The notes beneath the pieces are model-generated. The model was not told the origin of the DNA and made no database searches. It saw only the letters and a program-made list of their open reading frames with translations. DNA of 64,000 bases, taken from contig CAVTRN010000001.1 in the NCBI GenBank assembly GCA_963737155.1, forward strand, positions 1,024,001-1,088,000. The letters are read 5' to 3'. This stretch comes from Nitrospirota bacterium (lineage in GTDB: Bacteria > Nitrospirota > UBA9217). Shown here in pieces: positions 40,581-63,664 of this stretch. The stretch's first letter is position 1. Each line of letters starts with the position of its first letter. Position numbers and translations under genes: made by a program.

Positions 40581-40614
40581 GAGTAGGAGATAATAAATCA
40601 GGAGGAGAGAAGCC

Positions 40615-41818: not shown

Positions 41819-41903
41819 TTGCAGGCTGCTGCTGGTGACAAAGGACGCGAAATCTCCCTCGTCCTTGCTGTAGAGGGTCGTCGGGAGGGACGGGATTACG
41901 TTT

Positions 41904-42356: not shown

Positions 42357-42399
42357 GCATCATCAAAATAAGCAAGTTTTTACTGAAACATCCGCAGTT

Positions 42400-42435
42400 T
42401 GCCTTAAATCTACGCACGTGCCTCTTTTTTCCTTT
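42400..42435 (+). promoter_or_regulatory. Tandem EBP site upstream of nifB
   Basis: TGCCTTAAATCTACGCA-cg-TGCCTCTTTTTTCCTTT, starting 88 bp before the -24 GG. Confidence 0.6.
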
Positions 42436-42486
42436 TCATGCCCCCCCATCTGAAAGGCAACCCATTAATTCTTCTCGGTTTTCTCC

Positions 42487-42502
42487 TGGCAATGATATTG
42501 CT
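42487..42502 (+). promoter_or_regulatory. Internal sigma54 promoter of nifB-hesA
   Basis: TGGCAATGATATTGCT. Confidence 0.82.
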
Positions 42503-42534
42503 ATAGTCATGAGTATTAGTGCAAGGAGGTTGCT

Positions 42535-44980: not shown

Positions 44981-45100
44981 ATTCCCCCTCCATGCCGTCA
45001 TTGTACTTTATCAGTCGGACGAAAACAAGTAGGTGCGAATTATTGCCGCGCTCTTTTAACGAAACAACATATCCCGATATGGTGGTATAACTCTTTTTTA

Positions 45101-45129
45101 TTGACAAACGTTTTGAGTTGTCTTATCAT
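45101..45129 (+). promoter_or_regulatory. sigma70 promoter of the nuo operon
   Basis: TTGACA-N17-TATCAT. Confidence 0.75.
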
Positions 45130-45190: not shown

Positions 45191-45555
45191 ATGACTCCAA
45201 GCAGCTATCTTCCGGAACACTTTTTGCCCGTAGTGGTGTTTCTTCTTCTAGGTACCGTGGTAGGCCTTGGGATGCTATTCGCCAGCTGGATTCTCCGGCC
45301 GCGAAATCCTTACCCTGAAAAGCTCGTCACCTATGAGTCCGGCATCATCCCCTTCATGGACGCCCATCAGAAGTTCTCCATCCGGTATTACATCATCGCA
45401 ATGCTGTTCCTCATCTTCGATATAGAAGCCGTGTTCCTCTATCCCTGGGCAGTAGCGTACAACTATTTAGGTCTCTATGGTTTTGTGGAAATGGTGATCT
45501 TCGTCGCCATCCTGGTCGTGGGGTACGTTTACGCATGGAAGAAAGGGGCCCTCGA

Positions 45556-45565
<10 letters not shown>
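45191..45565 (+). CDS. nuoA: Complex I subunit A
   Basis: [27 protein letters not shown]. Confidence 0.96.
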
Positions 45566-46035
<470 letters not shown>

Positions 46036-46121
46036 TAAGACACGAATAGCTAAATACCGCAAACAGAAATAGGAACCACGCACCACGAGCGTTCAGCAGG
46101 TGCGCTTGGGAACGAGGAAGT

Positions 46122-46592
46122 ATGGACCCCTCTCAGATCGCAAAGATGGTAGAAGAAAAATTTCCCGACCAGGTCCTTGGGATATTGAATTATGCCGGAC
46201 AGGTTGGAATTTTGCTCAGGAAGGACAGGATTCAGGACATCTGTCTCTTCCTCCGTGATGAACCCTCCCTCCGGATGGATCACCTCGCCGACCTCGCTGC
46301 TGTTGATTATTCGAAGTATCCCGGCGATGCGGGGCCTCGATTCGAGGTTGTCTACAACATGATTTCCATGGTGCATCACCACCGGATTCGCCTGAAAGTG
46401 AGGGTTACGGAGGAGGACCCACGGGTGGATTCGATTTCCTCGCTCTGGCACACGGCCGATTGGCATGAACGCGAGGCTTTCGACCTCATGGGGATCAAGT
46501 TTGACGGCCACCCCGACCTTCGCAGAATCCTGATGCCTGAGGATTGGGAGGGGCACCCGCTCAGGAAGGAATATCCACTGAAAGGATATTGA
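46122..46592 (+). CDS. nuoC: Complex I subunit C
   Basis: W.ERE.FDLMGI.F.GHPDLRRIL, HPLRK. Confidence 0.96.
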   Translation: MDPSQIAKMVEEKFPDQVLGILNYAGQVGILLRKDRIQDICLFLRDEPSLRMDHLADLAAVDYSKYPGDAGPRFEVVYNMISMVHHHRIRLKVRVTEEDPRVDSISSLWHTADWHEREAFDLMGIKFDGHPDLRRILMPEDWEGHPLRKEYPLKGY

Positions 46593-46703
46593 TAAAACAA
46601 GTCCAAAGTGCAAAGCACTAGAAGGATTTCCATCGCGGAAAGATTTTATATTGCTTTTTGATTTGAACTTTGGATTTCGAAATTTGTCATATATGGTGAT
46701 TTT

Positions 46704-47897
46704 ATGTCCGCTACTGAAACCAAGGAAATAGTTCAAAAAGAAATTACTCTGAACATGGGCCCGCAACATCCGGCCACGCACGGTGTTCTGCGGCTGGTTG
46801 TCGATCTCCGGGGAGAAACCGTGGTCGGCTGCGATCCTCGTCCCGGCTATCTTCACCGCGGGATTGAGAAATGGATGGAGAGCAGAACCTATCACCAGAT
46901 CATTCCCATGACGGACCGGCTGGAGTACATCACTGGAATGAACAACAATCTCGGCTGGGTTGTTGCGGTGGAAAAGCTCGCTGGCATCACGGTTCCCGAA
47001 AGGGCACAATTCATCAGAACGCTGACCGCCGAGCTGTCCCGGCTTTCGGGCCACCTGGTGTGGCTCGGCACCCATGCGCTCGACATCGGTGCCATGACGG
47101 TCTGTATGTATACCCTGCGCGAACGGGAGCTTGTCCTCGATCTCCTGGAAATGGTGACAGGGGCGCGACAGACCGTAAGCTATGCTCGAATCGGCGGCGT
47201 GCGCAACGACGTGCCGCGTGACTTCATCGACAAGTGCAGAGAGTTCACGGAAATCTTCCCGAAGCGTCTTGAGGATTACGATACGCTCATCCGGCAGAAC
47301 CGCATCTGGCTGAAGCGTACCGTGGGCATCGGCGTAATGACAGCAGAAGAGGCGATCAACTATGGATTGACCGGAGGTTCCCTGCGCGGATCGGGTGTGA
47401 ACTATGATCTCCGAAAAGTGGAGCCTTATGCAGCCTATGACAAGGTTGAGTTCGATGTCCCTCTCGAGAAGGATGGCGATGTCTATGCCCGATACGTTGT
47501 GCGTATCAATGAGATGCGTCAGAGCAACCGGATCATCAAACAGTGCCTCGACATGATGCAGCCCGGTCCCATAACGACCGATGACACGCGTTATGCCATA
47601 CCGGAAAAAGTGAACGTGATGCAGAGCATGCAGTCGCTTGTGCACCAGTTCGTGATTATGAGCAAGTGGGTTCCCATGCCCAAGGGAGAAGTATATGTAG
47701 CCACTGAAGCGCCGAAGGGCGAACTCGGTTTTTATATTGTAAGTGACGGGAGCGGCAGACCCTATCGCGTCAAGATCCGTGCCCCATCGTACGTGCATGT
47801 GAGCGCCCTGCCGAAAATGGTGACCGGCCATATGGTGGCGGATGTGATCGCCTGTATCGGAACCATTGATATCGTGCTTGGTGAATGCGATCGGTAA
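46704..47897 (+). CDS. nuoD: Complex I subunit D
   Basis: GPQHPATHGVLR, HRGIEK, DRLEY, EAPKGE, GECDR. No NiFe CxxC motifs. Confidence 0.97.
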   Translation: MSATETKEIVQKEITLNMGPQHPATHGVLRLVVDLRGETVVGCDPRPGYLHRGIEKWMESRTYHQIIPMTDRLEYITGMNNNLGWVVAVEKLAGITVPERAQFIRTLTAELSRLSGHLVWLGTHALDIGAMTVCMYTLRERELVLDLLEMVTGARQTVSYARIGGVRNDVPRDFIDKCREFTEIFPKRLEDYDTLIRQNRIWLKRTVGIGVMTAEEAINYGLTGGSLRGSGVNYDLRKVEPYAAYDKVEFDVPLEKDGDVYARYVVRINEMRQSNRIIKQCLDMMQPGPITTDDTRYAIPEKVNVMQSMQSLVHQFVIMSKWVPMPKGEVYVATEAPKGELGFYIVSDGSGRPYRVKIRAPSYVHVSALPKMVTGHMVADVIACIGTIDIVLGECDR

Positions 47898-47913: not shown

Positions 47914-48270
47914 ATGAAACTAAGAGAGATTGCCAGTCTTCTCCAGGCGCAGGTGCTTGTCGGAAATGGCCTCCTTGATGAAATCGAAGTGGACCAGTGC
48001 TTTAGTGCGGACCTGATGAGCGATGTGCTTGGCCGCTCGTATGCGAACGGCATCCTGATCACGGGGCTTACGAACCCCCAGGCGGTGCGGACTGCCGACA
48101 TAGCCGACATCAGGGCGGTCTGCGTCGTGCGTGGGAAACTGCCGGAACCAGACACTGTGGCATTGGCTAAACAGAAGGAAATCCCGCTTTTCACCACGAA
48201 GCTGACTATGTTCGAGGCCTGCGGTATTCTCTATCAAGGCGGCCTCAGGGGGGTTGCCGAACGGCAATAG
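47914..48270 (+). CDS. DRTGG-domain protein
   Basis: ADLMSDVL, LITGL.N.Q..RTA, VRGK. Confidence 0.85.
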   Translation: MKLREIASLLQAQVLVGNGLLDEIEVDQCFSADLMSDVLGRSYANGILITGLTNPQAVRTADIADIRAVCVVRGKLPEPDTVALAKQKEIPLFTTKLTMFEACGILYQGGLRGVAERQ

Positions 48271-48274
48271 GCTG

Positions 48275-49228
48275 ATGGCATTGCAGGGAAAAGAGCCGGA
48301 CACTCTGGACAGGGTGACCAAGACACAGGAAATGGCCTATGAGGTCACCGTCGGCGAGGTAATGGCCCCCAAGATGGTGACTGTAAGCCCGGAGCAGACC
48401 ATGGCGGAGTTCAGGTTTATTCTCCGGGACAACCGAATCTCCGGAACGCCGGTGGTCGAGTACGGCAGGCTCGTGGGCATGGTCAGTATTGAAGACTTGA
48501 TCAACGCTCTGTATGACAACGCTATCAATGCTCCCATCCGGGAGAGAATGAAAACAAATGTTCAATGTCTCTATGACGACGAACGCCTCGTTCACTGCAT
48601 CGCCAAATTTTCCAAGCTGGGATACCGACGGTATCCCGTACTGAACCGGAAGGAAGAGCTGGTCGGCATCATCACCAAGGGGAGTATTGTCGAGGGACTG
48701 CTCAAGATGCTTGAAATGGAGTATGAGCAGCATGAGACAAATACAGCCATTACTCGCCAGCGGCCCACGGTGCGAAAGTTCTTTGAAGATGTGACGGCCG
48801 ACGATATCAGCTTCACATTCAAATACAATGTTGCTGGGCAATCCCTGAAGGTGGCGGGTAAAGCTGCGAGCGAGCTGAAAAGCGCACTAAAAAAATTAGG
48901 TGTCTGTCCTCCGCTTCTCCGAAGAATCGGAGTGGCAACCTATGAAGCGGAGATTAATCTCGCATCCTATACCAAAGGGGGAGAGATTCGTGCCCAGGTA
49001 GAGAAATGGGGGGTCACGATAGAAGCTGTCGATTACGGACCAGGGATTCCCGATATCGAGCTGGCCATGCAGCCGGGATATTCCACGGCGCCTGACTGGG
49101 TGAGGGAGCTGGGTTTCGGAGCGGGGATGGGCCTGGTAAACATGAAGAAGTGCGCCGACGAAATGACCCTGAAATCCACTGTACCCGACGGAACGCACCT
49201 GACCATGCAATTCTATTATACAACGTGA
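48275..49228 (+). CDS. CBS-pair + RsbT-like Ser/Thr kinase (GHKL ATPase) fusion
   Basis: Two CBS domains (SGTPVV, RRYPV), then YEAEIN, DYGPGI.DI..AMQPGYST, GAGMGL. Confidence 0.85.
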   Translation: MALQGKEPDTLDRVTKTQEMAYEVTVGEVMAPKMVTVSPEQTMAEFRFILRDNRISGTPVVEYGRLVGMVSIEDLINALYDNAINAPIRERMKTNVQCLYDDERLVHCIAKFSKLGYRRYPVLNRKEELVGIITKGSIVEGLLKMLEMEYEQHETNTAITRQRPTVRKFFEDVTADDISFTFKYNVAGQSLKVAGKAASELKSALKKLGVCPPLLRRIGVATYEAEINLASYTKGGEIRAQVEKWGVTIEAVDYGPGIPDIELAMQPGYSTAPDWVRELGFGAGMGLVNMKKCADEMTLKSTVPDGTHLTMQFYYTT

Positions 49229-49316
49229 TCCCGTGGCTGGGATCGTTCGAGTGCTAGCGGGGAGCATCGTGAAAGGAACCTGCGCTGATCGCCGGAGGGG
49301 CTTCATAGAGTCAGAC

Positions 49317-49658
49317 ATGACCCTGAATGATTTAGTAAAAGAATTCGATCTTCAAGTGAAAGCTGGCACCGGCCTTCTCGACCGGGAAGTTGCCGGTGGA
49401 TATGTAAGCGATCTTCTTTCGGATGTGCTAGCCCACGCCGAAGATGGGGTTCTGTGGGTCACGCTCCATGTTCATCAGAACATTGTCGGCGTGGCTTCTC
49501 ACAAAGGGTTGGCGGGCATCGTGCTGGTGCAAGGAAGAGTTCCCGAAAAAGATACGGTGGCAAAGGCCGAAGAAGAGGAGATCCCGATTATGGTCACCGA
49601 CCTTTCGGCCTTCGAATTCGTAGGCAGGCTCTATAAGGCGGGGATCCGTGGCGCTTAG
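49317..49658 (+). CDS. Second DRTGG-domain protein
   Basis: GGYVSDLLSDVL, WVT...H.N.V.VA. Confidence 0.83.
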   Translation: MTLNDLVKEFDLQVKAGTGLLDREVAGGYVSDLLSDVLAHAEDGVLWVTLHVHQNIVGVASHKGLAGIVLVQGRVPEKDTVAKAEEEEIPIMVTDLSAFEFVGRLYKAGIRGA

Positions 49659-50394
49659 GCGCATAAAGGCCGATCTGCACGTGCATACCTGCCTGTCCCC
49701 TTGCTCCGGTCTTGATATGTCGCCTCGTGAAGTGGTGAGCGCAGCGATGCGCAAGGGAATGGATCTGATCGGTGTGTGCGATCATAATTCGGCGGAAAAC
49801 GTTCTAGCCGTAAAAAAAGCAGGCGAGCGGAACGGTCTGATGGTGCTCGGCGGGATGGAAATCGCTTCTTCCGAAGAAGCGCACATCCTGACGTTCTTTG
49901 ACGATGACGACGATCTCCTAGTTTTCCAGGAATACGTCTATGAACACCTCGAGGGCAGAAATGATGAGCGTGCCTTTGGCCTGCAGGTCATCGCCGATGA
50001 TGAAGACGGCGTGACCGGTTTTTGTGACCGCCTCCTGATTGCAGCGACAACGCTTCCCGCGGAAGCAATCGTCGCGCAGGCGCGCGCGGCAAGAGGCGAG
50101 AGCCTGGTGATCGCCGCGCATGTGGACCGCGAATCTTTCAGCATTATCGGTCAGCTTGGATTCATCCCACCTTCGTTGGCCTTGGATGCCGTTGAAGTCT
50201 CAGCACACATGAGTGTGGACGAGGCGAGAAAGCGTTTTCCTGATTGCAGACACTACCCGGTGATTACCGGTTCCGATGCGCACGGGCCCGAGGACATTGG
50301 TAAACGATTTACCTGCTTCACCGTTGACGGTGGTACGGCGTCTGAAATCAAAAAGGCGCTTGCGGGCAGGGACGGTAGGAAGGCGGTATGCTGA
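49648..50394 (+). CDS. PHP-family phosphoesterase
   Basis: DLHVHTCLSPC, CDHN, GME, AHVDR, SDAH. Confidence 0.9.
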   Translation: MALRRIKADLHVHTCLSPCSGLDMSPREVVSAAMRKGMDLIGVCDHNSAENVLAVKKAGERNGLMVLGGMEIASSEEAHILTFFDDDDDLLVFQEYVYEHLEGRNDERAFGLQVIADDEDGVTGFCDRLLIAATTLPAEAIVAQARAARGESLVIAAHVDRESFSIIGQLGFIPPSLALDAVEVSAHMSVDEARKRFPDCRHYPVITGSDAHGPEDIGKRFTCFTVDGGTASEIKKALAGRDGRKAVC

Positions 50395-50398
50395 GGCG

Positions 50399-50935
50399 GT
50401 GGAAGATATCTCGCTCCATATTCTCGATATCGCCGAAAACTCAGTCCGCGCCGATGCTAGAACAATAGAGATCACGGTAACGAGGGATATTCGGCAGGAT
50501 TTGCTTTTGGTCGAAGTAATCGACGACGGCAGGGGAATGGATTCAGCGACGCTTGCGAGGGTCCGGGACCCGTTCTTTACAACGAAGCACAAGAAAACCG
50601 GCTTGGGAATTCCACTTCTGTCCCAGACAGCGGAGCAGGCTGGCGGGAAAGTAACGGTAGAGTCCGCGCCGGGAAAAGGGACGAAAGTACTGGCCATCTT
50701 CGGCTGGAGCAACGTAGACCGGCCGGCGATCGGAAACGTGGCCGATACACTGATGACCCTCATAGCGGGGCATCCTGATCTCGATATCGTTTATACCGAA
50801 CAGGATGGCGAGCGGGTTTTCCATTTCGACACACGGGAGATTAAGAGCGAGCTCGAAGATGTCCCGATCAGCGCACCGGAGGCGCTCAGCGCGGTGCGAG
50901 ACCTGCTGCGGGAAGCGATACGAATCAAACAGTAA
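50399..50935 (+). CDS. Stand-alone histidine-kinase-like GHKL ATPase
   Basis: DISLHILDIAENS, DDGRGM, DPFFTTK, GLGIP. No sensor domain. Confidence 0.85.
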   Translation: MEDISLHILDIAENSVRADARTIEITVTRDIRQDLLLVEVIDDGRGMDSATLARVRDPFFTTKHKKTGLGIPLLSQTAEQAGGKVTVESAPGKGTKVLAIFGWSNVDRPAIGNVADTLMTLIAGHPDLDIVYTEQDGERVFHFDTREIKSELEDVPISAPEALSAVRDLLREAIRIKQ

Positions 50936-50963: not shown

Positions 50964-51476
50964 ATGAGTAACGATGCTGTTGCACAGCCGCCTGTCAGTG
51001 AAGATGTGGATATCATAACGTCAGATATGTACCAAAAAATCGACGTGATCATCGAAAAGTACAAGGACAAACCCGGTTCGCTCATCCCGGTACTCCAGCA
51101 GGCGCAGGATGTTTGCGGCTATCTACCCCATATCGTTCAGCGTTATATCGCGAAGGGGCTCAAGATGTCGCCGAGCGTGGTTTTCGGCGTAGCAACCTTC
51201 TATTCCTTCTTCACGCTGGTACCTCGCGGCAAGCACGTGATTCGCGTCTGTCTCGGAACGGCATGCTACGTGAAGCGAAGCGAGGAAATTCTCGATAAAA
51301 TTAAGGACGAGCTGGATCTTGAGGTCGGAGAAATCACGAGAGACAAGAAATATTCCCTGGAAGCTGTGCGATGCCTCGGCGCCTGCGGCCTAGCCCCCGT
51401 TGTGGTTGTGGGCCAGGATACCTACGGCGACGTGGTAGCCACAAAAGTTATGGACATTATCAAGAAGTACGAATAA
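50964..51476 (+). CDS. nuoE: NuoE/HydC/HndA-like [2Fe-2S] subunit
   Basis: VATFY, CLGTAC, CLGACGLAPV. Confidence 0.93.
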   Translation: MSNDAVAQPPVSEDVDIITSDMYQKIDVIIEKYKDKPGSLIPVLQQAQDVCGYLPHIVQRYIAKGLKMSPSVVFGVATFYSFFTLVPRGKHVIRVCLGTACYVKRSEEILDKIKDELDLEVGEITRDKKYSLEAVRCLGACGLAPVVVVGQDTYGDVVATKVMDIIKKYE

Positions 51477-51500: not shown

Positions 51501-51884
51501 ATGGCTAAACTGACGATTGCAGACTTGAAAAAAATCAAGGAAAATTATCACGCGAACCAGGCGCTGCGCGAGGGCGGTTTCCGCGTAAAGGTCACTGTAC
51601 ACATGGGGACCTGCGGGATTGCCGCTGGCGCCCGGAGCATCATGAACGTGGTGATGGAAGAAATGGCGAAATCCAATCTGAAGGATGTCGCGGTCACCAC
51701 GTCGGGCTGCGCCGGACTCTGCAGTAAGGAACCCATGGCAACCATCGAACTTGCCGGCGAACCGCCCGTGAAGTATATCTCTCTTACGGAAGACAAGATG
51801 CGTAAAATTTTTGCCGAACATGTCATCGGCGGGAAACCGGTGGCTGACTTTGCCCTGGTTATGGGGCATGAGACGACGTATTAA
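51501..51884 (+). CDS. HndB/HydD-like thioredoxin-fold ferredoxin
   Basis: MGTCGIAAGA ... GCAGLCSKEP ... EHV.GG.PV. Confidence 0.85.
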   Translation: MAKLTIADLKKIKENYHANQALREGGFRVKVTVHMGTCGIAAGARSIMNVVMEEMAKSNLKDVAVTTSGCAGLCSKEPMATIELAGEPPVKYISLTEDKMRKIFAEHVIGGKPVADFALVMGHETTY

Positions 51885-51947: not shown

Positions 51948-53738
51948 GTGGAGACAACTTATCGCTCAAACATAATGATCTGCGCGGGCACGGGCTGCGT
52001 GGCAAACGGGTCACTTAAGGTCAAAGATGCGCTCGAGACCGAGCTTATCAAACGAAACCTTCAGAACGAGGTCAAGATCGTACTGACCGGGTGCAACGGA
52101 TTTTGCGCCAAGGGGCCGGTCATGGTGGTCTATCCCGAAGACATTTTTTACCAGGTCGTGAAGCCCGAGGACGTCCCGTATCTTGTAGAAGAACATTTCA
52201 TCAAAGGCAGACCAGTACAGAAATTCCTCTACACACCGCCGGCGGAAAAAAAGACGATTCCGGTGATGAACGAGATTCCCTTCTTCAAACACCAGGTGCT
52301 CCGCGCACTGCGAAACCGGAGTCTTATCGACGCCGAAAAGATTGAGGAATACATCGCCCGCGACGGTTATTTGGCTGCTGCTAAGGCACTCACCGAGATG
52401 ACTTCTGAACAAATCGTAAACGAGGTGAAGAAGTCAGGCCTCCGCGGACGCGGTGGCGCGGGATTTCTCACTGGCCTCAAGTGGGAACTTTGCGCGCGCG
52501 TTCCGGGGGAAGTCAAGTACATCCTGTGCAATGGCGACGAAGGCGACCCGGGAGCATTCATGGACCGTAGCGTCATGGAAGCCGATCCGCATTCCGTGCT
52601 TGAGGGAATGATCATTGCTGCAAAGGCTATCGGCGCCCATTTTGGCTATATCTATGTCCGGGCCGAGTATCCTCTCGCAGTGCACCGTCTCCAGCTTGCG
52701 ATCAATCAGGCCAAGGAGAATGGTCTGCTGGGGAAGGACATCCTAGGCACCGGGTTCGATCTCGATATTGAAATCTACCAGGGCGCCGGCGCGTTTGTCT
52801 GTGGCGAGGAAACGGCCCTTATGGCCTCCATCGAGGGGAAGCGCGGCATGCCGAAGCCCAAGCCGCCGTTCCCGGCAGTCAAAGGTCTGTGGATGAGGCC
52901 GTCAGTGCTCAATAACGTTGAGACTTTTGCGAACGTGCCGCCGATCATCCTGAACGGGGCTGACTGGTTTGCGAGCCTCGGAACTGAGAAGAGCAAGGGG
53001 ACAAAGGTCTTTGCGCTGTCCGGCGCTCTCAATAATATCGGCCTTGTCGAGGTGCCCATGGGCACCCCGCTCAAAACCATTATCTTCGACATCGGCGGTG
53101 GCATCAAGAACAATCGGAAGTTCAAGGCCGTGCAGATGGGTGGCCCGTCGGGTGGGTGTATCCCCAATACGCTAATCGATACGCCCGTGGATTTCGAGAA
53201 CATCAACAAAACCGGCGCTATCATGGGCTCAGGCGGGATGGTTGTCATGGATGAGACCACCTGCATGCCTGCCATGGCTAAATTCTTTCTCGAATTCACC
53301 GAGGACGAGTCCTGCGGCAAGTGTGTGCCCTGCCGCATCGGAAACAAAACGCTTCTCTCGATTCTCACCCGCATCACGAACGGAGAGGGCCGCGAAGGTG
53401 ACCTTGAGTTGCTGCTCGCCCTCTCGCAGCAGATCAAGGACACGTCGCTCTGCGGTTTGGGCCAGACATCGCCGAACCCGGTTTTGACGACGATCAAATA
53501 CTTCCGTGACGAGTACGAAGCTCACATCAAGGAACACAAGTGTCCTGCACGGGTATGTACGCCGCTGGTCAAGTTCGTGGTGGACCCGAACAAGTGCAAG
53601 AAATGCGGCCAGTGCTTCAAGGCCTGCCCGGCCGGTGCGCTTAAATGGGAAAAGGGCCAGGTTGCCTACATCGATCCGGAGAAGTGCACGAAGTGCAAGT
53701 CCTGCATCAAGGCGTGCCGGTTCTGGTCGATTGACTGA
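51948..53738 (+). CDS. nuoF: Long NuoF of HydB/HndC type (FMN/NADH site, N-terminal [2Fe-2S], C-terminal 2x[4Fe-4S])
   Basis: CAGTGC..GCNGFC, GRGGAGF, DEGDPGAFMDR, GAGAFVCGEETAL, GGPSGG, ESCGKCVPCR, H..EHKCPARVC and two CxxCxxCxxxC motifs. Confidence 0.93.
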   Translation: METTYRSNIMICAGTGCVANGSLKVKDALETELIKRNLQNEVKIVLTGCNGFCAKGPVMVVYPEDIFYQVVKPEDVPYLVEEHFIKGRPVQKFLYTPPAEKKTIPVMNEIPFFKHQVLRALRNRSLIDAEKIEEYIARDGYLAAAKALTEMTSEQIVNEVKKSGLRGRGGAGFLTGLKWELCARVPGEVKYILCNGDEGDPGAFMDRSVMEADPHSVLEGMIIAAKAIGAHFGYIYVRAEYPLAVHRLQLAINQAKENGLLGKDILGTGFDLDIEIYQGAGAFVCGEETALMASIEGKRGMPKPKPPFPAVKGLWMRPSVLNNVETFANVPPIILNGADWFASLGTEKSKGTKVFALSGALNNIGLVEVPMGTPLKTIIFDIGGGIKNNRKFKAVQMGGPSGGCIPNTLIDTPVDFENINKTGAIMGSGGMVVMDETTCMPAMAKFFLEFTEDESCGKCVPCRIGNKTLLSILTRITNGEGREGDLELLLALSQQIKDTSLCGLGQTSPNPVLTTIKYFRDEYEAHIKEHKCPARVCTPLVKFVVDPNKCKKCGQCFKACPAGALKWEKGQVAYIDPEKCTKCKSCIKACRFWSID

Positions 53739-53892: not shown

Positions 53893-56013
53893 ATGCAGAA
53901 GATATCGGTTACAGTTGACGGAAAAAAAGTTGAAGTGCCTCTCGGAGCGACGATTCTCGAGGCGGCGAATGCTGCGGGATCGCGAGTCCCGACGTTGTGC
54001 CACGACAACAAACTCCACCCCTTCGGCGCGTGCAGGATCTGCCTCGTCGAAGTGGAAGGCACACCGCGCAAGTTCACGCCCTCCTGCACGACGCCGGCGA
54101 CGGACAACATGGTCGTGAAAACCTCCACACCGTCGCTCATCGAGGCGCGGAGGATGGTGCTTGAACTGCTGCTGATCAAGCATCCCCTTGACTGCCCGGT
54201 CTGCGACAAGGCAGGCGAGTGCTCACTCCAGGATTTGGTGCATGAGTACGGGCTGGGTACGAGTAGATTCGACGCGGAGAAGGGCTACCTTCCGCCGGAT
54301 TATGAAAGTGCAATTATCGAGCGCAACATCAGCCGGTGCATCCTTTGTGGAAAATGCGTCCGTATCTGCGACGAACAAAATGCCGTGGGCGAGTGGGCCT
54401 TCACACGGCGTGGAACGCGGGCACGGATTAGCACCGATTTCGACCGGCCCCTGGACTGCGAGTTCTGCGGAGAATGCGTGGAGATCTGCCCGGTGGGCGC
54501 GCTAACCACGCGCCAGTTTAAGTACAAGGCCCGGTCATGGAATCTCGAAGCGACCTCGTCGGTCTGCAATTACTGCGGCTGCGGCTGCAATGTTTCCTAC
54601 GAGACCCGTGACGGCAAAATCATGAGGGTGGGCCCCGCGAAAAACAATTATCTCTGCACCAAGGGGAGGTTCGGCTGGGATGCAACGCATCATGCCGATC
54701 GTCTCACCACGCCGAAGATGCGCGTGGGAGGAGAGCTCGTGGACTGCACATGGGAAGAGGCGCTGTCGGTCATTGCGACCAATCTCAACGTGATCAAGGG
54801 CAAGGGCGGTGCTGACAGCATCGGAGGTTTGGGATCGGTTAGGACCACGAACGAGGACAGCTATGTGTTCCAAAAATTCCTGCGCTCTGTCGTGGGGACT
54901 GCCAACGTAGACATGCTTGCAAGGCTCAAGACGCCGAAAGGACTTAATACGTCCTTCTTTTCCGGGGAACTGAACAGGATTATTGAGCATGAAGTTATTC
55001 TCGTGCTTGACCCGAATGTGGGTGAGATTAACCCGCTTACGGGCATCGAGATCGTTCGTGCGGTCAACAAGAAAGATCGGAAACTGATTCTCGTGAACGA
55101 CGACTATAACAAGTTCAATAAGATCGCGACTGTCGTGCTTCCTATGAGCACGGACAAGGCGCTCGATGAGCTCCTTTCGGCGCTCGCCTCACGGGTTGGC
55201 AATGAAGCAGACAAGGCCGTCCAACTGCTCAAGGGAGCAAAGAATGTGGCGGTCATTGTACCTGCGCAGCTTTCGGACAAAGCACACATGGGGATCAGGG
55301 ATTTGGCAGGAAAGCTCCAGAATGTTACCTTCTATCCCCTGGTGCGGAGGAGCAATTATCAGGGTTCGCTTGATATGGGTATCGTTTCCGGTTATCTCCC
55401 CGGTTACCGAAAAATGGATAAGCCGGGCATGAACGCCGTTGAAATGCTCGATGCGGCCAAGACCGGCAAGCTTGTCTCTCTCTATATCATGGGAGACGAT
55501 CCTGTGGGAAGCGATCCGGGCCTGAAGCAGACCCTCGAGAAGCTCGAATTTCTCGTGGTCCAGGACATCTTTATGACCGAGACCGCGAAGCTCGCCCATG
55601 TCGTGCTGCCCGCTGCCAGTTCAGCGGAGAAGTCAGGGACCTTCACCAATGTGGAGCGCAGGCTCCAGCAGTTGAACAAAGCGGAAGAACCTGTCGGGGA
55701 ATCGCGCTTGGACTGGGAGATCATCCAGGATATTGCGAAAAGGATGGGTGGCTCCTTAAGTTATGTGTCCGACCGGGACATCCTGAAGGAGATCCGGTCT
55801 GTCGTGCCGTCTTACGCCGATCTCGCTGTGGGTGCCTGCTGGGCGCGCGAAAAGTCACCAATTGCCGGCTCGTCAGAGGACCTCTCCCTGGAATCGGATA
55901 CAATCATGAAGCAGGAAGTAATCACCGCGGAACGGCTGCTTTTTTCCTCAGGGGTCAGCATCACGCGTTCTCACGAAATAGGAACGATCAGACATTACAA
56001 GATCGAAGTGTAG
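53893..56013 (+). CDS. nuoG: NuoG-like subunit (Fe-S relay plus non-catalytic molybdopterin-oxidoreductase fold)
   Basis: [2Fe-2S] motif, HPLDCPVC, CILCGKCVRIC, CEFCGECVEICP, CNYCGCGC..LC. No Fdh catalytic Cys/Sec. Confidence 0.88.
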   Translation: MQKISVTVDGKKVEVPLGATILEAANAAGSRVPTLCHDNKLHPFGACRICLVEVEGTPRKFTPSCTTPATDNMVVKTSTPSLIEARRMVLELLLIKHPLDCPVCDKAGECSLQDLVHEYGLGTSRFDAEKGYLPPDYESAIIERNISRCILCGKCVRICDEQNAVGEWAFTRRGTRARISTDFDRPLDCEFCGECVEICPVGALTTRQFKYKARSWNLEATSSVCNYCGCGCNVSYETRDGKIMRVGPAKNNYLCTKGRFGWDATHHADRLTTPKMRVGGELVDCTWEEALSVIATNLNVIKGKGGADSIGGLGSVRTTNEDSYVFQKFLRSVVGTANVDMLARLKTPKGLNTSFFSGELNRIIEHEVILVLDPNVGEINPLTGIEIVRAVNKKDRKLILVNDDYNKFNKIATVVLPMSTDKALDELLSALASRVGNEADKAVQLLKGAKNVAVIVPAQLSDKAHMGIRDLAGKLQNVTFYPLVRRSNYQGSLDMGIVSGYLPGYRKMDKPGMNAVEMLDAAKTGKLVSLYIMGDDPVGSDPGLKQTLEKLEFLVVQDIFMTETAKLAHVVLPAASSAEKSGTFTNVERRLQQLNKAEEPVGESRLDWEIIQDIAKRMGGSLSYVSDRDILKEIRSVVPSYADLAVGACWAREKSPIAGSSEDLSLESDTIMKQEVITAERLLFSSGVSITRSHEIGTIRHYKIEV

Positions 56014-56022
56014 GAGCAGAAT

Positions 56023-57108
56023 ATGCCCGAAATGAACCAAATACTTCACCTTCTCTTCACTATAGGCATCCCCGCTGTTATACTGCTGGCATTCATCTTG
56101 GCCAACGCCATGTACCTGCAGCTCATGGAGCGCAAGGTGCTCGCGCATATGCAAGGACGTCTGGGGCCGATGCGTACCGGCTGGCATGGGATCCTTCAGC
56201 CGATCGCCGATGCCGTCAAGTTCATGATGAAAGAGGATATCATTCCTGCGAAAGCTGACAAGTGGGTGTTCAGCATAGCTCCCCTGATCCTGCTTGTGAT
56301 GGCGTTTGGTGCCATGGTGATAATTCCCTTTGGTCCGCCCACGAACTTCTTCGGACTTTTGTCGAAGAAGGTTCCGCTCTGGGTATCTAACCTGAACGTA
56401 GGCGTGCTTTTCATCCTTGCTTTTTCAAGCGTGGGAACCTACGGTGTGATCATGGCGGGTTGGTCTTCGAACAATAAATACTCGCTTATGGGCGGTTTCC
56501 GCTCTGCGGCGCAGATGATCAGCTACGAAATCCCGATGGCATTTTCGATTCTGACTGTGGTCCTCATGGCGGGATCGCTTAATTTATCCGATATCGTAAA
56601 CGCGCAGGCTCACCGGTGGTTTATCGTGGCACTGCCCGTCGGGCCGGTGGCCTTTTACCTCTACCTCATGTCGGGCATTGCCGAAACGAACCGCGTGCCC
56701 TTTGACCTGCCGGAAGCGGAGAGCGAACTGGTGGCGGGGTATTTCACCGAGTACAGTGGTATCCGGTTCGGTATATTCTACATGGCCGAATACATGAACA
56801 TGATCGTCGTTTCGCTGCTTGTTTCCATCATGTTCTTGGGCGGCTGGCTTCCGGTCCAGATTTTGCCGCACACACTCGGCCATATCGCCCCGATTGCATT
56901 TATCAACAAGATGCTTGCGGCCATCCCGCCGACGATCTGGCTGCTTGGAAAACTGTATTTCTTTATCTTCTTCTATATGTGGCTGCGCGCAACACTTCCG
57001 CGATACCGGTACGACCAGCTCATGGCGATATCCTGGAAGATCATGCTACCCATTTCTCTGGTTACGTTGCTGGTTGCAGCGGGCATGAAGCAGATAGGAT
57101 GGCTGTAA
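56023..57108 (+). CDS. nuoH: Complex I subunit H
   Basis: ERK..A..Q.R.GP, QPIADAVK, RSAAQMISYE, PFDLPEAESEL. Confidence 0.97.
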   Translation: MPEMNQILHLLFTIGIPAVILLAFILANAMYLQLMERKVLAHMQGRLGPMRTGWHGILQPIADAVKFMMKEDIIPAKADKWVFSIAPLILLVMAFGAMVIIPFGPPTNFFGLLSKKVPLWVSNLNVGVLFILAFSSVGTYGVIMAGWSSNNKYSLMGGFRSAAQMISYEIPMAFSILTVVLMAGSLNLSDIVNAQAHRWFIVALPVGPVAFYLYLMSGIAETNRVPFDLPEAESELVAGYFTEYSGIRFGIFYMAEYMNMIVVSLLVSIMFLGGWLPVQILPHTLGHIAPIAFINKMLAAIPPTIWLLGKLYFFIFFYMWLRATLPRYRYDQLMAISWKIMLPISLVTLLVAAGMKQIGWL

Positions 57109-57150
57109 AACAGTTCGGTGATCAGCGTTCGGAGTCAGGAGTATAAAACG

Positions 57151-57621
57151 ATGAGTAAAGTGAACAAGCTGCTCAAAACGATCTTTCTGGTCGAAATAGC
57201 TCAAGGCATGGTATTAACGCTTAAGACCATGTTGACCCCAGCCATTACACGGCAGTATCCAACGTTCAAGCGCAAACCGATCCCCGGATCGCGCGGACTC
57301 CACGCCATGAGGCGCGACGATTCGGGCCAGAAAGAGCGCTGCATCGGATGCGGCCTGTGCGAAGCAGTCTGTCCCTCGAAAGCCATCACGGTGGTGACGT
57401 CCGAGGGCGTGGAGCACGAGAAAGTCATAAACTCATACGAGCTCGACCTACTCCGTTGCGTATTTTGCGGTTTCTGCATCGATGCGTGCCCCGTATCGGC
57501 CATCATCATGACGCCTGAGTTCGAGCTGGCCTGCTATTCAAGAAAAGATGCGTTCTATACCAAGGATCGGCTTATCGCAGTGGGCGATCACTACCTCGGC
57601 GGGAAGGCGGTAAAAAAGTAA
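57151..57621 (+). CDS. nuoI: Complex I subunit I
   Basis: CIGCGLCEAVCP, CVFCGFCIDACP. Confidence 0.96.
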   Translation: MSKVNKLLKTIFLVEIAQGMVLTLKTMLTPAITRQYPTFKRKPIPGSRGLHAMRRDDSGQKERCIGCGLCEAVCPSKAITVVTSEGVEHEKVINSYELDLLRCVFCGFCIDACPVSAIIMTPEFELACYSRKDAFYTKDRLIAVGDHYLGGKAVKK

Positions 57622-57622
57622 T

Positions 57623-58129
57623 ATGATGAACCAGCTTATTTTCCTCTATTTTGCCACGGTCATCTTGGTATCTGCCGTGCTCACGGTCACACGCACTAAT
57701 CCCGTGCACAGCGTGATGTTCATGCTGCTCCTATTTTTCCACATTGCCGGGATCTTCGTGCTTCTGAATGCGGAGTTTCTCGCGGCGGTACAGCTGATCG
57801 TCTATGCCGGAGCCATTCTGATCCTGTATCTCTTTGTCGTGATGCTCCTGAACGTTGACCGGGAAAGCTCCGCCGCTCGGGCGAACCGTTTCTGGCCCTG
57901 GATGGTAGGCTTTGGCCTGTTGATCTCCGGTGAGGTGATGCTCCTTGTAGTGCGGGGCACGTTCCCGGCAGAGGAAGGGATTACCATGAGGCCTGCCGGC
58001 AGCGGCATTAAAGAGCTCGGCATAACGCTTTATCAGAATTACCTGGTGCCCTTCGAAGCTGCGTCCATCATTCTGCTTGTGGGCCTGGTGGGGGCGGTGA
58101 TGCTGGCGAAGAGAAGGGCGAATGATTAG
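57623..58129 (+). CDS. nuoJ: Complex I subunit J
   Basis: NPVHS, AEFLA.VQLIVYAGAI, PFE. Confidence 0.95.
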   Translation: MMNQLIFLYFATVILVSAVLTVTRTNPVHSVMFMLLLFFHIAGIFVLLNAEFLAAVQLIVYAGAILILYLFVVMLLNVDRESSAARANRFWPWMVGFGLLISGEVMLLVVRGTFPAEEGITMRPAGSGIKELGITLYQNYLVPFEAASIILLVGLVGAVMLAKRRAND

Positions 58130-58135
58130 AGTATT

Positions 58136-58634
58136 AAGAGTCTGATGCGTTTGTAGAGTTTACTGAGTTGATAGTGTCCGGGATTTTGGTTCCAATCCTA
58201 TGATCTCTTTAGACACTCAGATCCATTCTGGAGGTTTTATGATTCCCTTGTCCTGGTATATCATGCTGAGCGCGGCGTTGTTCACCATTGGTGTCGTGGG
58301 CGTGCTGAGCCGACGCAATATTTTTATCATCCTAATGTCCATTGAACTTATGCTGAACGCCGCGAATATCAACCTTGTGGCGTTCTCGCATTACCTGCAG
58401 TCACTTACGGGTCAGATTTTCGTTATGTTCGTAATCACCGTGGCCGCAGCCGAGGCCGCCGTGGCGCTGGCAATCATCATCCTTCTCTCGCGCAACCGCG
58501 GGAGCGTTTATGTGGATGAGTTCAATATCATGAAAGGATGAGATGAGTCGATAATGTCTAAAGAGCAACTTCGGCAAAAGTCCATCATCTCAAACCATAA
58601 GACTCCACAAACTCTTTAAACCCTTCAGGCTCTT
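58136..58634. repeat. Nested inverted repeats flanking nuoK
   Basis: 58136-58168 vs 58602-58634 (25/33 reverse-complement identity) and 58205-58215 vs 58555-58565 (11/11). Confidence 0.6.
58239..58541 (+). CDS. nuoK: Complex I subunit K
   Basis: [17 protein letters not shown]. Confidence 0.96.
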
Positions 58635-58675
58635 GGGACTGATCGGACTCTATAGACTCACAACCGGGAGTGTTT

Positions 58676-60610
<1,935 letters not shown>

Positions 60611-60660
60611 CCGTTCCACGATCAAGATATAAAGTTCATAGTAAATAAAGGAGCTTCTCA

Positions 60661-62199
60661 ATGCTCGAATTAAAACCCGATCAGCTGGGGTATCCATTGC
60701 TGAGCTTTATGATCTTTCTACCCATACTCGGGGCGTTTCTGCTTCTGTTTGTCAGGAATGCATCCATGGCGCGCTGGTTCGCGCTTGGTATTTCGGTAGC
60801 CGAACTTGCTCTTTGTATTCCGCTTCTGGCGAACTTCGACGCGACCATCCCTCACATGCAGTTCGGCGAGAGCATGTCCTGGATCGCGGCATGGAACATC
60901 AATTACCGCCTCGGCGTCGATGGCATCAGCGTTCTGTTCGTGGTCCTGACTTCGCTGCTGACGACAATATCCATCATGGTGTCCTGGAGGGCCATTCAGG
61001 ACCGGGTCAAGGAGTTCATGCTCTCGCTGCTGTTCCTGGAAGCGGCGATTATTGGCGTGTTCGTGTCCCTGGATCTTTTCCTTTTCTATATCTTTTGGGA
61101 AGCCATGCTCATTCCCATGTACCTCCTGATCGGCGTCTGGGGAGGGCCGAACCGGCTGTATGCGGCGATTAAGTTCTTCTTGTATACCCTTGTGGGAAGT
61201 GTGCTCATGCTCGTCGCGATCATCGCGGTGTATTTCGCGGCGGGACATACATTTGACGTGCTGGCACTCATGAATTACAAATTCGGCCGTACATTCCAGA
61301 TGGTAGCGTTCGCCGCTTTCTTCGCGGCATTTGCGGTCAAAGTGCCTATGTTCCCGTTCCATACGTGGCTGCCGGATGCCCATGTGGAGGCACCGACAGC
61401 CGGCAGTATCATCCTGGCAGGTATCCTTATCAAGATGGGAGCCTATGGGTTCCTCCGCTTCTCGCTGCCCTTTTTCCCCGATGCGGCACTTGCCTGGACG
61501 CCTGCCATCATGACCCTGTCCGTGATCGCCATCATCTACGGGGCGTACATGGCCTTTGCGCAGACGGACTTCAAGAAACTTATCGCCTATTCAAGCGTGA
61601 GCCACATGGGATTCGTCACCCTCGGTATTTTCGCGTTGAACAGCCAGGGGCTCGAAGGTGGCATTCTCCAGATGCTGAACCACGGAATTTCAACGGGTGC
61701 TTTGTTTCTCGCCGTGGGCGTGATCTATGAACGGACGCATACAAGGCTGATTGCTGACTACGGCGGAATTGCGTCCCGGGTCCCGGTATATGCGACCTTT
61801 CTGCTGATCATCGTTTTTTCATCGATCGGTCTTCCGGGGACCAACGGTTTTATCGGTGAGTTTACGATCCTGCTTGGCGCATTCCTGCACGACAAGCCAT
61901 ACGCCGTGATCTCGTCCCTCGGTATCATCCTTGGCGCGGGGTACATGCTCTGGCTGTACCAGCGCGTGGCGTTCGGCAAGATAACCAACCCGCACAATGA
62001 ACACCTTGCCGATATGAACCTTCGTGAGGTGGCCGCGGCGCTGCCGCTCGTGCTGCTGGTGTTCGTGATCGGTCTTTATCCGAACGCGGCTTTCGGCATA
62101 ATGCATGTGTCCGTATCGAACCTGATTCAGCATATGCAAGCTAAGGCGGAGTCAGCGCCGGCTATGGCGCAGACGCTCGGTACGATATTAGGAAAATAA
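60661..62199 (+). CDS. nuoM: Complex I subunit M
   Basis: FWEAMLIPMY, KVPMFPFHTWLPDAHVEAP, AYSSVSHMG. Confidence 0.97.
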   Translation: MLELKPDQLGYPLLSFMIFLPILGAFLLLFVRNASMARWFALGISVAELALCIPLLANFDATIPHMQFGESMSWIAAWNINYRLGVDGISVLFVVLTSLLTTISIMVSWRAIQDRVKEFMLSLLFLEAAIIGVFVSLDLFLFYIFWEAMLIPMYLLIGVWGGPNRLYAAIKFFLYTLVGSVLMLVAIIAVYFAAGHTFDVLALMNYKFGRTFQMVAFAAFFAAFAVKVPMFPFHTWLPDAHVEAPTAGSIILAGILIKMGAYGFLRFSLPFFPDAALAWTPAIMTLSVIAIIYGAYMAFAQTDFKKLIAYSSVSHMGFVTLGIFALNSQGLEGGILQMLNHGISTGALFLAVGVIYERTHTRLIADYGGIASRVPVYATFLLIIVFSSIGLPGTNGFIGEFTILLGAFLHDKPYAVISSLGIILGAGYMLWLYQRVAFGKITNPHNEHLADMNLREVAAALPLVLLVFVIGLYPNAAFGIMHVSVSNLIQHMQAKAESAPAMAQTLGTILGK

Positions 62200-62209
62200 G
62201 GAGAAACCG

Positions 62210-63664
62210 ATGTCCAGCTTGCCTCAGGAATTCATGCAATTTCTCGCTCCGGTGCTGCCCGAGGCCGTTGTCCTTATTACGGCAATCCTCGTTCTTCTCT
62301 TCGATCTTTTCATCGAGAAGGAGGGCAAAGCACTCTTGGGCTGGTTGAGCGTGGCGGGAATCGCGGTCGCGGCCGTAGTCACTTACCACTCGATGGGATT
62401 GAATGAGGCCGTATTCAATGGCACCTTTCTCGTCGACCCCTTCTCAACGTTCTTTAAATTCGTTTTTTACATCGCCTGCGGGCTTGGGATATTAGTGTCC
62501 ATCAATTATCTGAAGGTTGAGGACATCCATCGAGGTGAGTACTATGCACTCATGCTATTCGCCACGAGCGGTATGATGCTCATGGCGTCGGCAGGCGACC
62601 TCATAACCCTCTATCTCGGTCTTGAGCTTATGGCGCTTTCGATTTACATCCTTGCGGGCTTCATGCGCCAGGATAACCGGTCGAATGAAGCCGCCATCAA
62701 GTATCTGGTTCTCGGTGCGTTCTCGTCGGGAATCATGGTCTACGGTATGTCGCTCGTCTATGGTCTTACCGGAACAACAAATCTTGGGCAGATTCTCGCG
62801 TTTCTGCATGACGCCAATCTCAATAATCCTGTCCTCTACTTGGCCATGATTATGCTGATCGTGAGCTTCGGCTTCAAGGTCGCGGCCGTACCGTTTCATA
62901 TGTGGGTGCCCGATGTATACGAGGGGGCGCCGACTTCCGTTACGGCCTTCATGTCCGCGGGCCCCAAGGTCGCGGGATTTGCCGTTCTGCTTCGGGTATT
63001 CCTGTATGCCTTCGAGCCGCTCCATGCTCATTCAACGGTCATTCTTTCGGGACTGGCTGTGCTCACCATGGCTGTGGGCAACATCATGGCATTGTCCCAG
63101 ACCAATATCAAGAGGATGCTTGCTTACTCGTCCATCGCCCATGCGGGCTATGCACTAGTCGGACTGGCTGCCGGCGGTCCTGAAGGAGCGGCCAGCGTGA
63201 TGCTTTATGTCTGTATCTACGCGCTCATGAACATGGGGGCATTTGGAGTAGTGATCATGCTTAGAAAGGCCGGCGCGCGGGGTGAGGAGATCACCGACTT
63301 CGCAGGGCTTGGCAAGACCAATAAGACTGCGGCCCTGCTCATGCTCATATTCATGTTCTCGCTTACCGGGATTCCGCCCACCGCGGGATTTATTGGCAAG
63401 TTCTACATCTTTAAATCAGCGATCCAGGCAGGACTCTTGTGGCTTGCAATCGCGGGTGTTCTCTTTTCGGCCATTAGCGCCTTCTTCTATCTCCGCATCA
63501 TCATGGTCATGTATATGAATGAACCGAAAGAGAGCATTGAACTCTCCATTTCGCCGTCCCTCGCGCTGGCGTTGGCGATATCGGTTACAGCCGTCATTGT
63601 CATCGGTGTCTATCCCGCCGAGCTCCTTAATTATGCGCGCGCGTCGATTTCGGGGATATTGTAG
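62210..63664 (+). CDS. nuoN: Complex I subunit N
   Basis: EAAIKY, FKVAAVPFHMWVPDVYEGAP, KRMLAYSSIAH. Confidence 0.97.
   Translation: MSSLPQEFMQFLAPVLPEAVVLITAILVLLFDLFIEKEGKALLGWLSVAGIAVAAVVTYHSMGLNEAVFNGTFLVDPFSTFFKFVFYIACGLGILVSINYLKVEDIHRGEYYALMLFATSGMMLMASAGDLITLYLGLELMALSIYILAGFMRQDNRSNEAAIKYLVLGAFSSGIMVYGMSLVYGLTGTTNLGQILAFLHDANLNNPVLYLAMIMLIVSFGFKVAAVPFHMWVPDVYEGAPTSVTAFMSAGPKVAGFAVLLRVFLYAFEPLHAHSTVILSGLAVLTMAVGNIMALSQTNIKRMLAYSSIAHAGYALVGLAAGGPEGAASVMLYVCIYALMNMGAFGVVIMLRKAGARGEEITDFAGLGKTNKTAALLMLIFMFSLTGIPPTAGFIGKFYIFKSAIQAGLLWLAIAGVLFSAISAFFYLRIIMVMYMNEPKESIELSISPSLALALAISVTAVIVIGVYPAELLNYARASISGIL

Follow-up and report, generated by a model that had tools for sequence, protein, structure and literature searches.

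A five-gene cassette of DRTGG, CBS-kinase, PHP and GHKL genes accompanies the Bfu-type input module of a predicted Nuo-Bfu complex I in Nitrospirota

Introduction

The closest described relative of the locus reported here is Nuo-Bfu, a predicted complex I with a BfuABC input module, which Schut 2022 placed in Nitrospirae; in the available part of that paper the BfuB proteins of Nuo-Bfu fall into clades 38 and 39, clade 39 consisting of Planctomycetes and Nitrospirae (PMC9304861). We analysed a stretch of 64,000 nucleotides from a Nitrospirota bacterium (assembly GCA_963737155.1, contig CAVTRN010000001.1, positions 1,024,001 to 1,088,000 of the forward strand; the whole stretch is called the window), in which five genes, hereafter the cassette, are located in the middle of a complex I (nuo) operon and encode two DRTGG proteins, a kinase fused to a pair of CBS domains, a PHP-family phosphoesterase and a GHKL protein. 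The word 'kinase' does not occur in the main text of PMC9304861, neither 'DRTGG' nor 'kinase' occurs in the one supplement available, and an exchange among three operon states with plain NuoEF is not mentioned in these parts; the genes labelled 'processing or regulatory' in its Fig. 3 may show the cassette.

The second group of relatives is found at bifurcating hydrogenases. According to the accessible text of PMC4694547, the tetrameric enzyme of Caldanaerobacter contains HydD as a genuine subunit, and the parts available of PMC3492117, PMC8163306 and PMC3608648 note genes for a 'histidine kinase', a serine/threonine kinase and a phosphatase beside such hydrogenases, the name histidine kinase being given in PMC3608648 and PMC8163306 to what we assume are orthologues of the GHKL gene. 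The partners of the group D hydrogenase HydS were still called unidentified in 2026, in the part of PMC13104023 that was accessible. What is known in print, as far as the available text of PMC9304861 and PMC3492117 goes, is the enzyme type, as a prediction, and the gene neighbours beside hydrogenases. In the literature searched, homologous genes beside bifurcating hydrogenases were noted and no characterisation of them was found; the same search returned no description of an on/off or reversal control of electron-bifurcating enzymes of the Bfu/HydABC type.

Here we propose, with roughly even confidence, that the five genes travel with BfuC-BfuD-BfuB as one block and act as a switch of that module, based on ATP-dependent phosphorylation of serine. 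Which genes are present, how they co-vary with the Bfu module, to which families they belong and which residues and fusions are conserved or present was seen directly, and the enzymatic steps are predicted from sequence and models.

Results

The cassette and its operon

The five open reading frames of the cassette are all on the + strand, between nuoD (46704-47897) and a nuoE-like gene (50964-51476), and the intergenic distances from nuoD to nuoE across the cassette are 16, 4, 88, -11, 4 and 28 nt. The operon has the following features:

45191..47897, + strand, nuoA, nuoB, nuoC and nuoD (Pfam PF00507, PF01058, PF00329 and PF00346)
47914..48270, + strand, DRTGG-1, 118 aa, with invariant D33 and S36, the candidate phospho-acceptor paired with the kinase
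48275..49228, + strand, two CBS domains and a SpoIIAB/RsbT-type GHKL kinase domain, 317 aa, with invariant E49, N53, D78, G80 and G82 (kinase residues are numbered within the domain, which starts at 48800)
49317..49658, + strand, DRTGG-2, 113 aa, with invariant D32 and S35, the serine in the first turn of predicted helix 34-40
49648..50394, + strand, PHP-family metallo-phosphoesterase, 248 aa, with invariant H11, H13, D45, H46, E71, H79, H158, D210 and H212
50399..50935, + strand, stand-alone GHKL protein, 178 aa, a predicted MutL/gyrase-type ATPase domain without a DHp domain, with invariant H7, D10, N14, D42, G44 and G46
50964..51476, + strand, BfuC or HydC-type NuoE (Pfam; 31-34% identity to the plain NuoE of sister operons)
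51501..51884, + strand, stand-alone thioredoxin-like protein of the HydD/BfuD type, with H34, C38, C70 and C74 (Pfam; co-occurrence with the cassette)
51948..53738, + strand, BfuB or HydB-type NuoF, 596 aa, with an N-terminal 2Fe-2S domain, the ligands of cluster B2 and two C-terminal 4Fe-4S motifs
53893..56013, + strand, NuoG (BfuA role), 706 aa, native to the operon and common to the cassette-less sister operons
56023..63664, + strand, nuoH to nuoN (open reading frames; synteny in family loci), putative names which we take from family features of the sequences and from gene order

Two CBS domains with HATPase_c_2, PHP and HATPase_c passed the Pfam cut-offs, and the two DRTGG matches, with 24 and 21.6 bits, both fell slightly short of the cut-off of 25.2. 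The cassette is present in one copy in the genome of the window.

The input module is of the Bfu type

An earlier note on this DNA, made from the letters alone, had missed that the surrounding operon is not an ordinary nuo operon, having an additional HydD/BfuD-type gene and a 596-aa NuoF of the HydB/BfuB type. From its sequence features the operon is predicted to encode a Nuo-Bfu complex I, the genes following the cassette being the predicted BfuC, BfuD and BfuB (HydC/D/B type). Pfam domains PF01512, PF10589 and two copies of PF00037 pass in BfuB, with a weak SLBB match (E 0.005), and the best PDB match of this protein is a bifurcating NiFe-HydB (848 bits, versus about 380 for plain NuoF). 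The ligands of cluster B2, defined in the available text of PMC9304861 as C438, C476 or Thr, H525, C531 and C536 of A. mobile HydB, are present in the window, mapped by alignment, as C439, T477, H526, C532 and C537. Losey 2020 gave three signatures of bifurcating beta subunits, A/E..M, F and GGPSG (PMC7311640, accessible part). Mapped by motif rather than aligned to T. maritima numbering, these read A/M, F and GGPSG in 24 of 25 BfuB rows of the Nitrospirota family to which the genome belongs (in the exception, G172, none of the patterns matched), and T/K, Y and no GGPSG in all 12 short NuoF rows. BfuC and a NuoG in the BfuA role, with 2Fe-2S and ferredoxin-type domains, lie inside the nuo cluster, which is one of the features by which Nuo-Bfu is recognised. 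The [FeFe]-hydrogenase domain PF02906 is absent from the whole genome, rated 100% complete, and control genomes gave matches; for [FeFe]-hydrogenases, the remark of the earlier note that the window encodes no hydrogenase catalytic subunit extends to the genome.

The same genome has a second, plain complex I operon elsewhere (L085). Two ~535-aa frames with weaker PF00346 matches, at G000:C2:1652341-1660718, are probably large subunits resembling those of membrane-bound hydrogenases.

Three states of the operon in the family

The orthologous NuoD was found in 56 of 64 family genomes and the locus was examined in all 56. In 44 of them the order is nuoA-D, cassette, BfuC/D/B, nuoG and nuoH-N, with BfuB visible in 38 and contigs ending earlier in 6 (in G209, counted among the 44, the contig breaks between nuoD and the cassette). 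This shared order means that the arrangement is not due to chance. Eight loci have plain NuoE and a short NuoF (~420 aa) and lack the cassette, two (G018 and G206) have both sets in a row with extra genes, and two end at nuoD and are uninformative. Thus, the close packing of five co-oriented genes between nuoD and nuoE, which the earlier note had reported and our reading frames and spacings confirmed, is conserved in nuo context, as that note had asked to be checked. Wherever nuoF is visible (48 loci), the cassette and BfuB are either both present (40) or both absent (8), with no discordant case. No match to the GHKL profile, to PHP or to BfuD was found anywhere in the eight cassette-less genomes, which are 85-100% complete, and a control genome gave a match.

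The plain module has a companion gene of its own: a stand-alone cNMP-binding gene (PF00027) lies between nuoD and plain nuoE in seven of the eight cassette-less operons and in both dual operons. Examples of this small, sensor-like gene are at L081:6385-6864 and L031:15349-15825. In L031 (G018) and L097 (G206) plain NuoEF and BfuC/D/B share one nuo operon with a single NuoG, and in L215 and L117 (G021) two complex I operons stand back to back, the divergent one ending in the cNMP gene, nuoE, F and G before the cassette-bearing one begins.

Trees of NuoF, NuoG and BfuB were calculated with FastTree, and some of their inner branches are weak. The short NuoFs group together, with the plain NuoF of other Nitrospirota as the sister group of their clade, the NuoGs of the family fall into a single clade whose basal branches are the plain-type copies, and the BfuB of the window groups with those of other Nitrospirota and with that of L123 (76% identity), where the cassette and BfuC/D/B stand free, with no catalytic partner adjacent. 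At L123:3314-6448 this block is interrupted by small genes which by their appearance resemble a nucleotidyltransferase/HEPN toxin-antitoxin pair. Based on the three placements, the eight-gene block of cassette and BfuC/D/B was most likely inserted between nuoF and the native nuoG; an arrival of NuoG together with the cassette was rejected from the NuoG tree. Most likely, the state with both modules survives in the two dual genomes and elsewhere one set was later lost, through repeated loss or exchange. A tree built from eight further Nuo subunits puts the plain state at three positions with well-supported branches between them (33 of 74 rows). At least four changes of state are needed. Forcing all eight plain-state genomes together was rejected (p-AU 2e-49), as was forcing G181 with six g7/g11 genomes (p-AU 0.0003, for a group picked after viewing the tree). 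The short NuoF and NuoG of G181 nevertheless group with those six genomes, which points to a swap back to the plain module.

These sister operons, with plain NuoEF and no cassette, are the reason why we rejected a complex I-specific regulator. The earlier note had seen in the cassette a regulator of complex I itself; it follows the Bfu input module and elsewhere stands beside hydrogenase or formate-dehydrogenase-like enzymes.

Distribution outside the family

Among 401 genomes of the phylum, PHP was found in 113 and a BfuD match in 124. PHP and stand-alone BfuD occur together in 109, PHP alone in 4, BfuD alone in 4 and neither in 284, with 11 genomes set aside whose BfuD was matched solely within a long fused frame (at least 635 aa); as the genomes are related, this co-occurrence is not a statistical test. 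A scan of GTDB with the GHKL alignment confirmed at least 586 relatives, the best 80 of which were kept for locus comparison. In the DNA retrieved, BfuB or BfuD is present in 37 of 61 non-family loci and neither in 24, nuo genes in 14, and a CBS-fused kinase in 7. The CBS-kinase fusion of the earlier note is real, with both CBS domains and HATPase_c_2 in place, and the CBS pair is one exchangeable input. In 23 of the 80 loci an ORF of ~450 aa with ferredoxin-like matches lies between the kinase and DRTGG-2; from its size, these matches and the joining of DRTGG-1 with a hydrogenase-like domain in one protein elsewhere, we infer a HydS-like sensor. Other partners include [FeFe]-hydrogenase (checked by Pfam in L053) and formate-dehydrogenase-like chains. 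The named relatives of the kinase are from Nitrospirota, and a plasmid search returned two records, with the PHP gene adjacent in one.

In complex I operons of the deltaproteobacterial type, DRTGG-2 and GHKL follow nuoD and precede the Bfu genes (in L153 and 8 further loci), with DRTGG-1, kinase and PHP after nuoN in 3 of 7 regions read. In L046, from another Nitrospirota lineage, the cassette is placed between nuoG and nuoH. Together with the family layout, this indicates that the link to complex I exists in several arrangements, each with Bfu genes. At L037:4356-5213, L046:3052-3981 and many other Nitrospirota loci, BfuC is fused to a response-regulator receiver domain, and next to it are a cassette lacking CBS and a histidine kinase with HAMP; such a receiver on BfuC itself fits control at the protein level.

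Kinase and DRTGG proteins

Residues E49, N53 and D78 and the G boxes of the kinase domain are invariant in 97 of 97 rows. The best solved relative of its profile is the serine kinase SpoIIAB (E 4e-11), whose E/N pair aligns with E49/N53. The two DRTGG proteins share a motif, D33-L-M-S36-D-V-L in DRTGG-1 and D32-L-L-S35-D-V-L in DRTGG-2, whose serine is present in 35/35 and 97/97 of the rows from loci and in 149 of 150 library representatives drawn from 2431 profile matches. The AlphaFold model of DRTGG-2 (pLDDT 97) matches the N-terminal domain of HPr kinase and DRTGG chains with TM 0.7-0.77, no STAS chain was among the matches listed, and the model places S35 at the first turn of a helix. The phosphoserine of STAS proteins likewise lies in the first turn of a helix.

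DRTGG-1 is located immediately 5' of the kinase in 67 of 68 non-family loci having it, and three natural fusions were noticed among the 150 matches, two of DRTGG-1 with the kinase and one with a hydrogenase-like domain. DRTGG-2 directly precedes GHKL in 12 of 94 loci, and in 72 of 94 PHP lies between them. A co-fold of the kinase domain, GHKL and DRTGG-2 with ATP reached a score of 0.02 against a mark of 0.32, with the controls not folded, and was used neither for nor against binding.

PHP and GHKL proteins

The metal ligands of PHP are complete in 36 of 36 rows. Matches to models of nucleoside-bisphosphate phosphatase and RNase RNM were weak and far under the cut-off. After the first metal motif, residues 13-19 form a conserved stretch H-T-C-L-S-P-C (C19 invariant, C15 nearly so), which might be a redox or extra metal site.

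The GHKL protein was modelled for residues 1-169 (pLDDT 92). All of this model matches the ATPase domains of MutL, ParE and TopoVI-B (MutL: Z 13.7, rmsd 2.8, 145 aligned), and histidine kinases are matched by its first ~105 residues only, at Z 8-9. No Pfam match to HisKA/DHp was found in this protein, which starts at the N-box helix; it could still act in trans. The name 'histidine kinase' was therefore rejected for the gene at 50399, there being no DHp and the model being a MutL-type ATPase domain. With 178 aa it has no room for a separate transducer domain. Re-reading this gene as a GHL-type ATPase alters which experiments suit it.

Several components named in the earlier note are supported: the shared D-L-x-S-D-V-L motif is present with its near-invariant serine, the RsbT-like kinase has the catalytic E/N pair and belongs with serine kinases of the SpoIIAB type, the tie between DRTGG and kinase is borne out by adjacency and natural fusions, and the PHP phosphoesterase keeps its ligands. 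Its sensor-less GHKL ATPase was refined: HATPase_c passes the cut-off, and the fold models as a MutL-type ATPase domain.

Discussion

A predicted phosphorylation switch for the Bfu module

As the cassette of this operon always comes with a swappable bifurcating-type input module, it is likely the ATP- and phosphorylation-based control system of that module. In the proposed switch, the kinase carrying the CBS pair would phosphorylate a DRTGG protein at its invariant serine, the PHP enzyme would remove the phosphate, and the state of DRTGG would control the predicted MutL-type ATPase acting on the Bfu subunits. The CBS pair would supply an adenylate input, in the place which a hydrogenase-like sensor or a two-component input fills in other copies. 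The whole would resemble a partner-switching circuit, with DRTGG standing for STAS, PHP for PP2C, and the GHL-type ATPase as output.

We do not hold all of these steps with the same confidence. Judging by conserved residues, adjacency and fusions, the kinase probably acts on DRTGG-1. CBS pairs are known to read adenine nucleotides, and by this analogy it is fairly likely that the present pair does so. That PHP reverses the phosphorylation of DRTGG is slightly favoured, and we lean about as far towards a post-translational output, by which the BfuD-containing module would be controlled in its activity, its direction or its set of subunits. A pairing of DRTGG-2 with the GHKL ATPase is put forward tentatively, at a little under even confidence. 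Energy-charge sensing, phosphotransfer and enzyme gating had been put forward in the earlier note as well, and they would be deduced steps here too; a complex I drawing on NADH and ferredoxin, or running backwards, would presumably have reason for gating by energy charge. Rather doubtfully, one may go further and imagine DRTGG as a second phospho-acceptor fold, a stand-alone MutL-type ATPase that remodels the BfuD module, an adenylate charge that sets NADH plus ferredoxin input against reverse operation, an input end exchangeable together with its own sensor (the CBS-kinase circuit with the bifurcating module, the cNMP-binding protein with the plain one), and the same circuit as the missing output of the group D hydrogen-sensing hydrogenases.

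Several observations weigh against the proposed switch. The genome of the window has two more Bfu-type modules without an adjacent cassette, cassette-less family genomes have BfuB homologues at 48-56% identity, and PHP is missing in 10 of the 11 genomes with only a fused-frame BfuD; the view that every Bfu enzyme needs the cassette was rejected on the last two of these grounds. Of the 24 non-family loci without BfuB or BfuD in the DNA examined, 16 had at least 5 kb downstream, many Nitrospirota copies adjoin two-component and sigma-54 genes, and related genomes are non-independent samples. At the level of the proteins, the conserved D-x-x-S at the helix start may be a structural cap or a ligand site, three stand-alone STAS proteins in the genome are possible alternative substrates of the kinase, the GHKL protein has the invariant Asp10 rather than Glu at the position of the catalytic base, and its ATP lid by sequence scores best against histidine kinases. 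The second CBS repeat has Ser at the usual position of the ribose-binding Asp.

The two Bfu-type modules without an adjacent cassette are located at G000:C1:332000-352000 (L086) and C2:1332000-1352000 (L087), next to acetyl-CoA synthase/formate-dehydrogenase-like and CO-dehydrogenase-family genes, and the NuoG-like gene of L086 is split over two ORFs.

Alternative explanations

The cassette could be a signalling relay that leaves the enzyme untouched and whose output is transcription of a redox operon through a two-component or sigma-54 regulator. In other Nitrospirota families the cassette indeed lies beside HAMP-HisKA kinases and sigma-54 response regulators, often away from Bfu genes, and Rydzak 2012 (PMC3492117) and Land 2020 (PMC8163306), in the parts accessible, read the hydrogenase-linked copies in this way. 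However, by ORFs and Pfam no DNA-binding protein is present in the operon of the window, the cassette entered the interior of an operon together with BfuC/D/B, the deltaproteobacterial-type operons keep DRTGG-2 and GHKL directly before the Bfu genes, and the 'histidine kinase' lacks DHp and models as a GHL ATPase. We consider this relay unlikely, yet a serious rival.

About as unlikely, and just as serious a rival, is an assembly or repair machine for the BfuD module, with the GHL-type ATPase as a chaperone, the DRTGG proteins as adaptors and the kinase only tuning it. The likeness of the GHKL model to MutL, ParE, TopoVI-B and Hsp90-type ATPase domains fits such a machine, as does the fact that stand-alone BfuD is the tightest partner; moreover, tte0891 of Caldanaerobacter, located between hydC and hydD and assumed from this position to be the GHKL orthologue, is not among the subunits of the purified complex reported in the available text of PMC4694547. 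Yet many Bfu modules lack the cassette, and exchangeable sensor inputs (the CBS pair in 7/61, the ~450-aa ferredoxin-bearing ORF in 23/80) suit a regulator better than a constitutive factor.

Much less probable is a small nucleotide signal, in which CBS and DRTGG would bind AMP or Ap4A-like ligands, PHP would hydrolyse the nucleotide and the serine would be a ligand contact. The DRTGG-2 model does match the CBS/DRTGG regulatory insert of a pyrophosphatase (3l2b), an adenine-nucleotide binder according to the part of the source available, and models of RNase RNM and nucleoside-bisphosphate phosphatase are weakly matched by PHP, far under the cut-off. This reading would, however, give no account of the two conserved ATP sites of the GHKL type or of the fusions of DRTGG with the kinase. 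That the genes are passengers which were brought in by the Bfu block and have ceased to serve complex I is scarcely credible, even though the block looks inserted and a free-standing copy without catalytic partner exists (L123), as BfuB never occurs in an operon without the cassette among the family loci examined, identities are 58-96% with catalytic residues kept, and the frameshifts of one assembly (G009) run across its nuo genes too.

Neighbouring features of the window

The best sigma-70-like site of the window lies upstream of nuoA:

45101..45129, + strand, sigma-70-like site (11/12), a consensus match only

Sigma-70-like sites number 8 in total, versus 6.3 +/- 2.9 in shuffles, and neither promoter nor terminator counts are above those of shuffles; two weak terminator-like matches within the GHKL gene were disregarded. 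Divergent from nuoA is a gene for a SAM-dependent methyltransferase (44357-45001, - strand), kept in most family loci and in all three operon states. Just upstream of the nuo operon, at 33488-44174, lies a nitrogenase cluster with nifH, nifD, nifK, a fused nifEN, nifX, two PII-like genes, a nif ferredoxin and a short nifB. A Bfu-type complex I could be a source of ferredoxin for this nitrogenase; a nifB-like neighbour stands beside the orthologous operon in only 4 family loci.

Comparison with known systems

The cassette is an obvious candidate both for the control of Bfu/HydABC enzymes and for the partners of group D sensory hydrogenases. The operon with its three states provides a natural experiment on a change of electron input in complex I and ties the cassette to one subunit, BfuD, and residues S36, S35, E49 and D10 can be named for testing.

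Among the systems known, the GHL ATPases (MutL, GyrB/ParE, TopoVI-B and Hsp90) share with the GHKL protein the whole N-terminal ATPase fold, as predicted, and an acidic residue four positions before the N-box Asn; the GHKL protein differs in its 178 aa without a separate transducer or client domain, in the Asp in place of the catalytic Glu and in its histidine-kinase-like ATP lid. The SpoIIAB-SpoIIAA-SpoIIE and RsbR-RsbS-RsbT-RsbX systems also have a SpoIIAB-type kinase with the E/N pair, an acceptor gene directly 5' of the kinase gene, two small paralogues with a conserved serine at a helix start and a phosphoesterase in the operon. However, the small proteins of the cassette are by Pfam DRTGG and not STAS, its phosphatase is PHP and not PP2C/SpoIIE, and its operon has no sigma factor and an extra GHL-type ATPase.

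The clusters of tetrameric bifurcating [FeFe]-hydrogenases and group D HydS (hyd of Caldanaerobacter/Thermoanaerobacter, Cthe_0338-0342 of C. thermocellum) contain the same gene families in near-identical order beside HydC/D/B, whereas the genome of the window has neither PF02906 nor HydS, its kinase is fused to CBS domains and the enzyme served is complex I. Nuo-Bfu, as described by Schut 2022 (PMC9304861), resembles the present locus in having Bfu genes flanked on both sides by the other genes of a nuoA-N cluster, in the domain set and B2 ligands of BfuB and in its Nitrospirota host; to this scheme the window adds a fourth gene, of the BfuD type, and the five-gene cassette.

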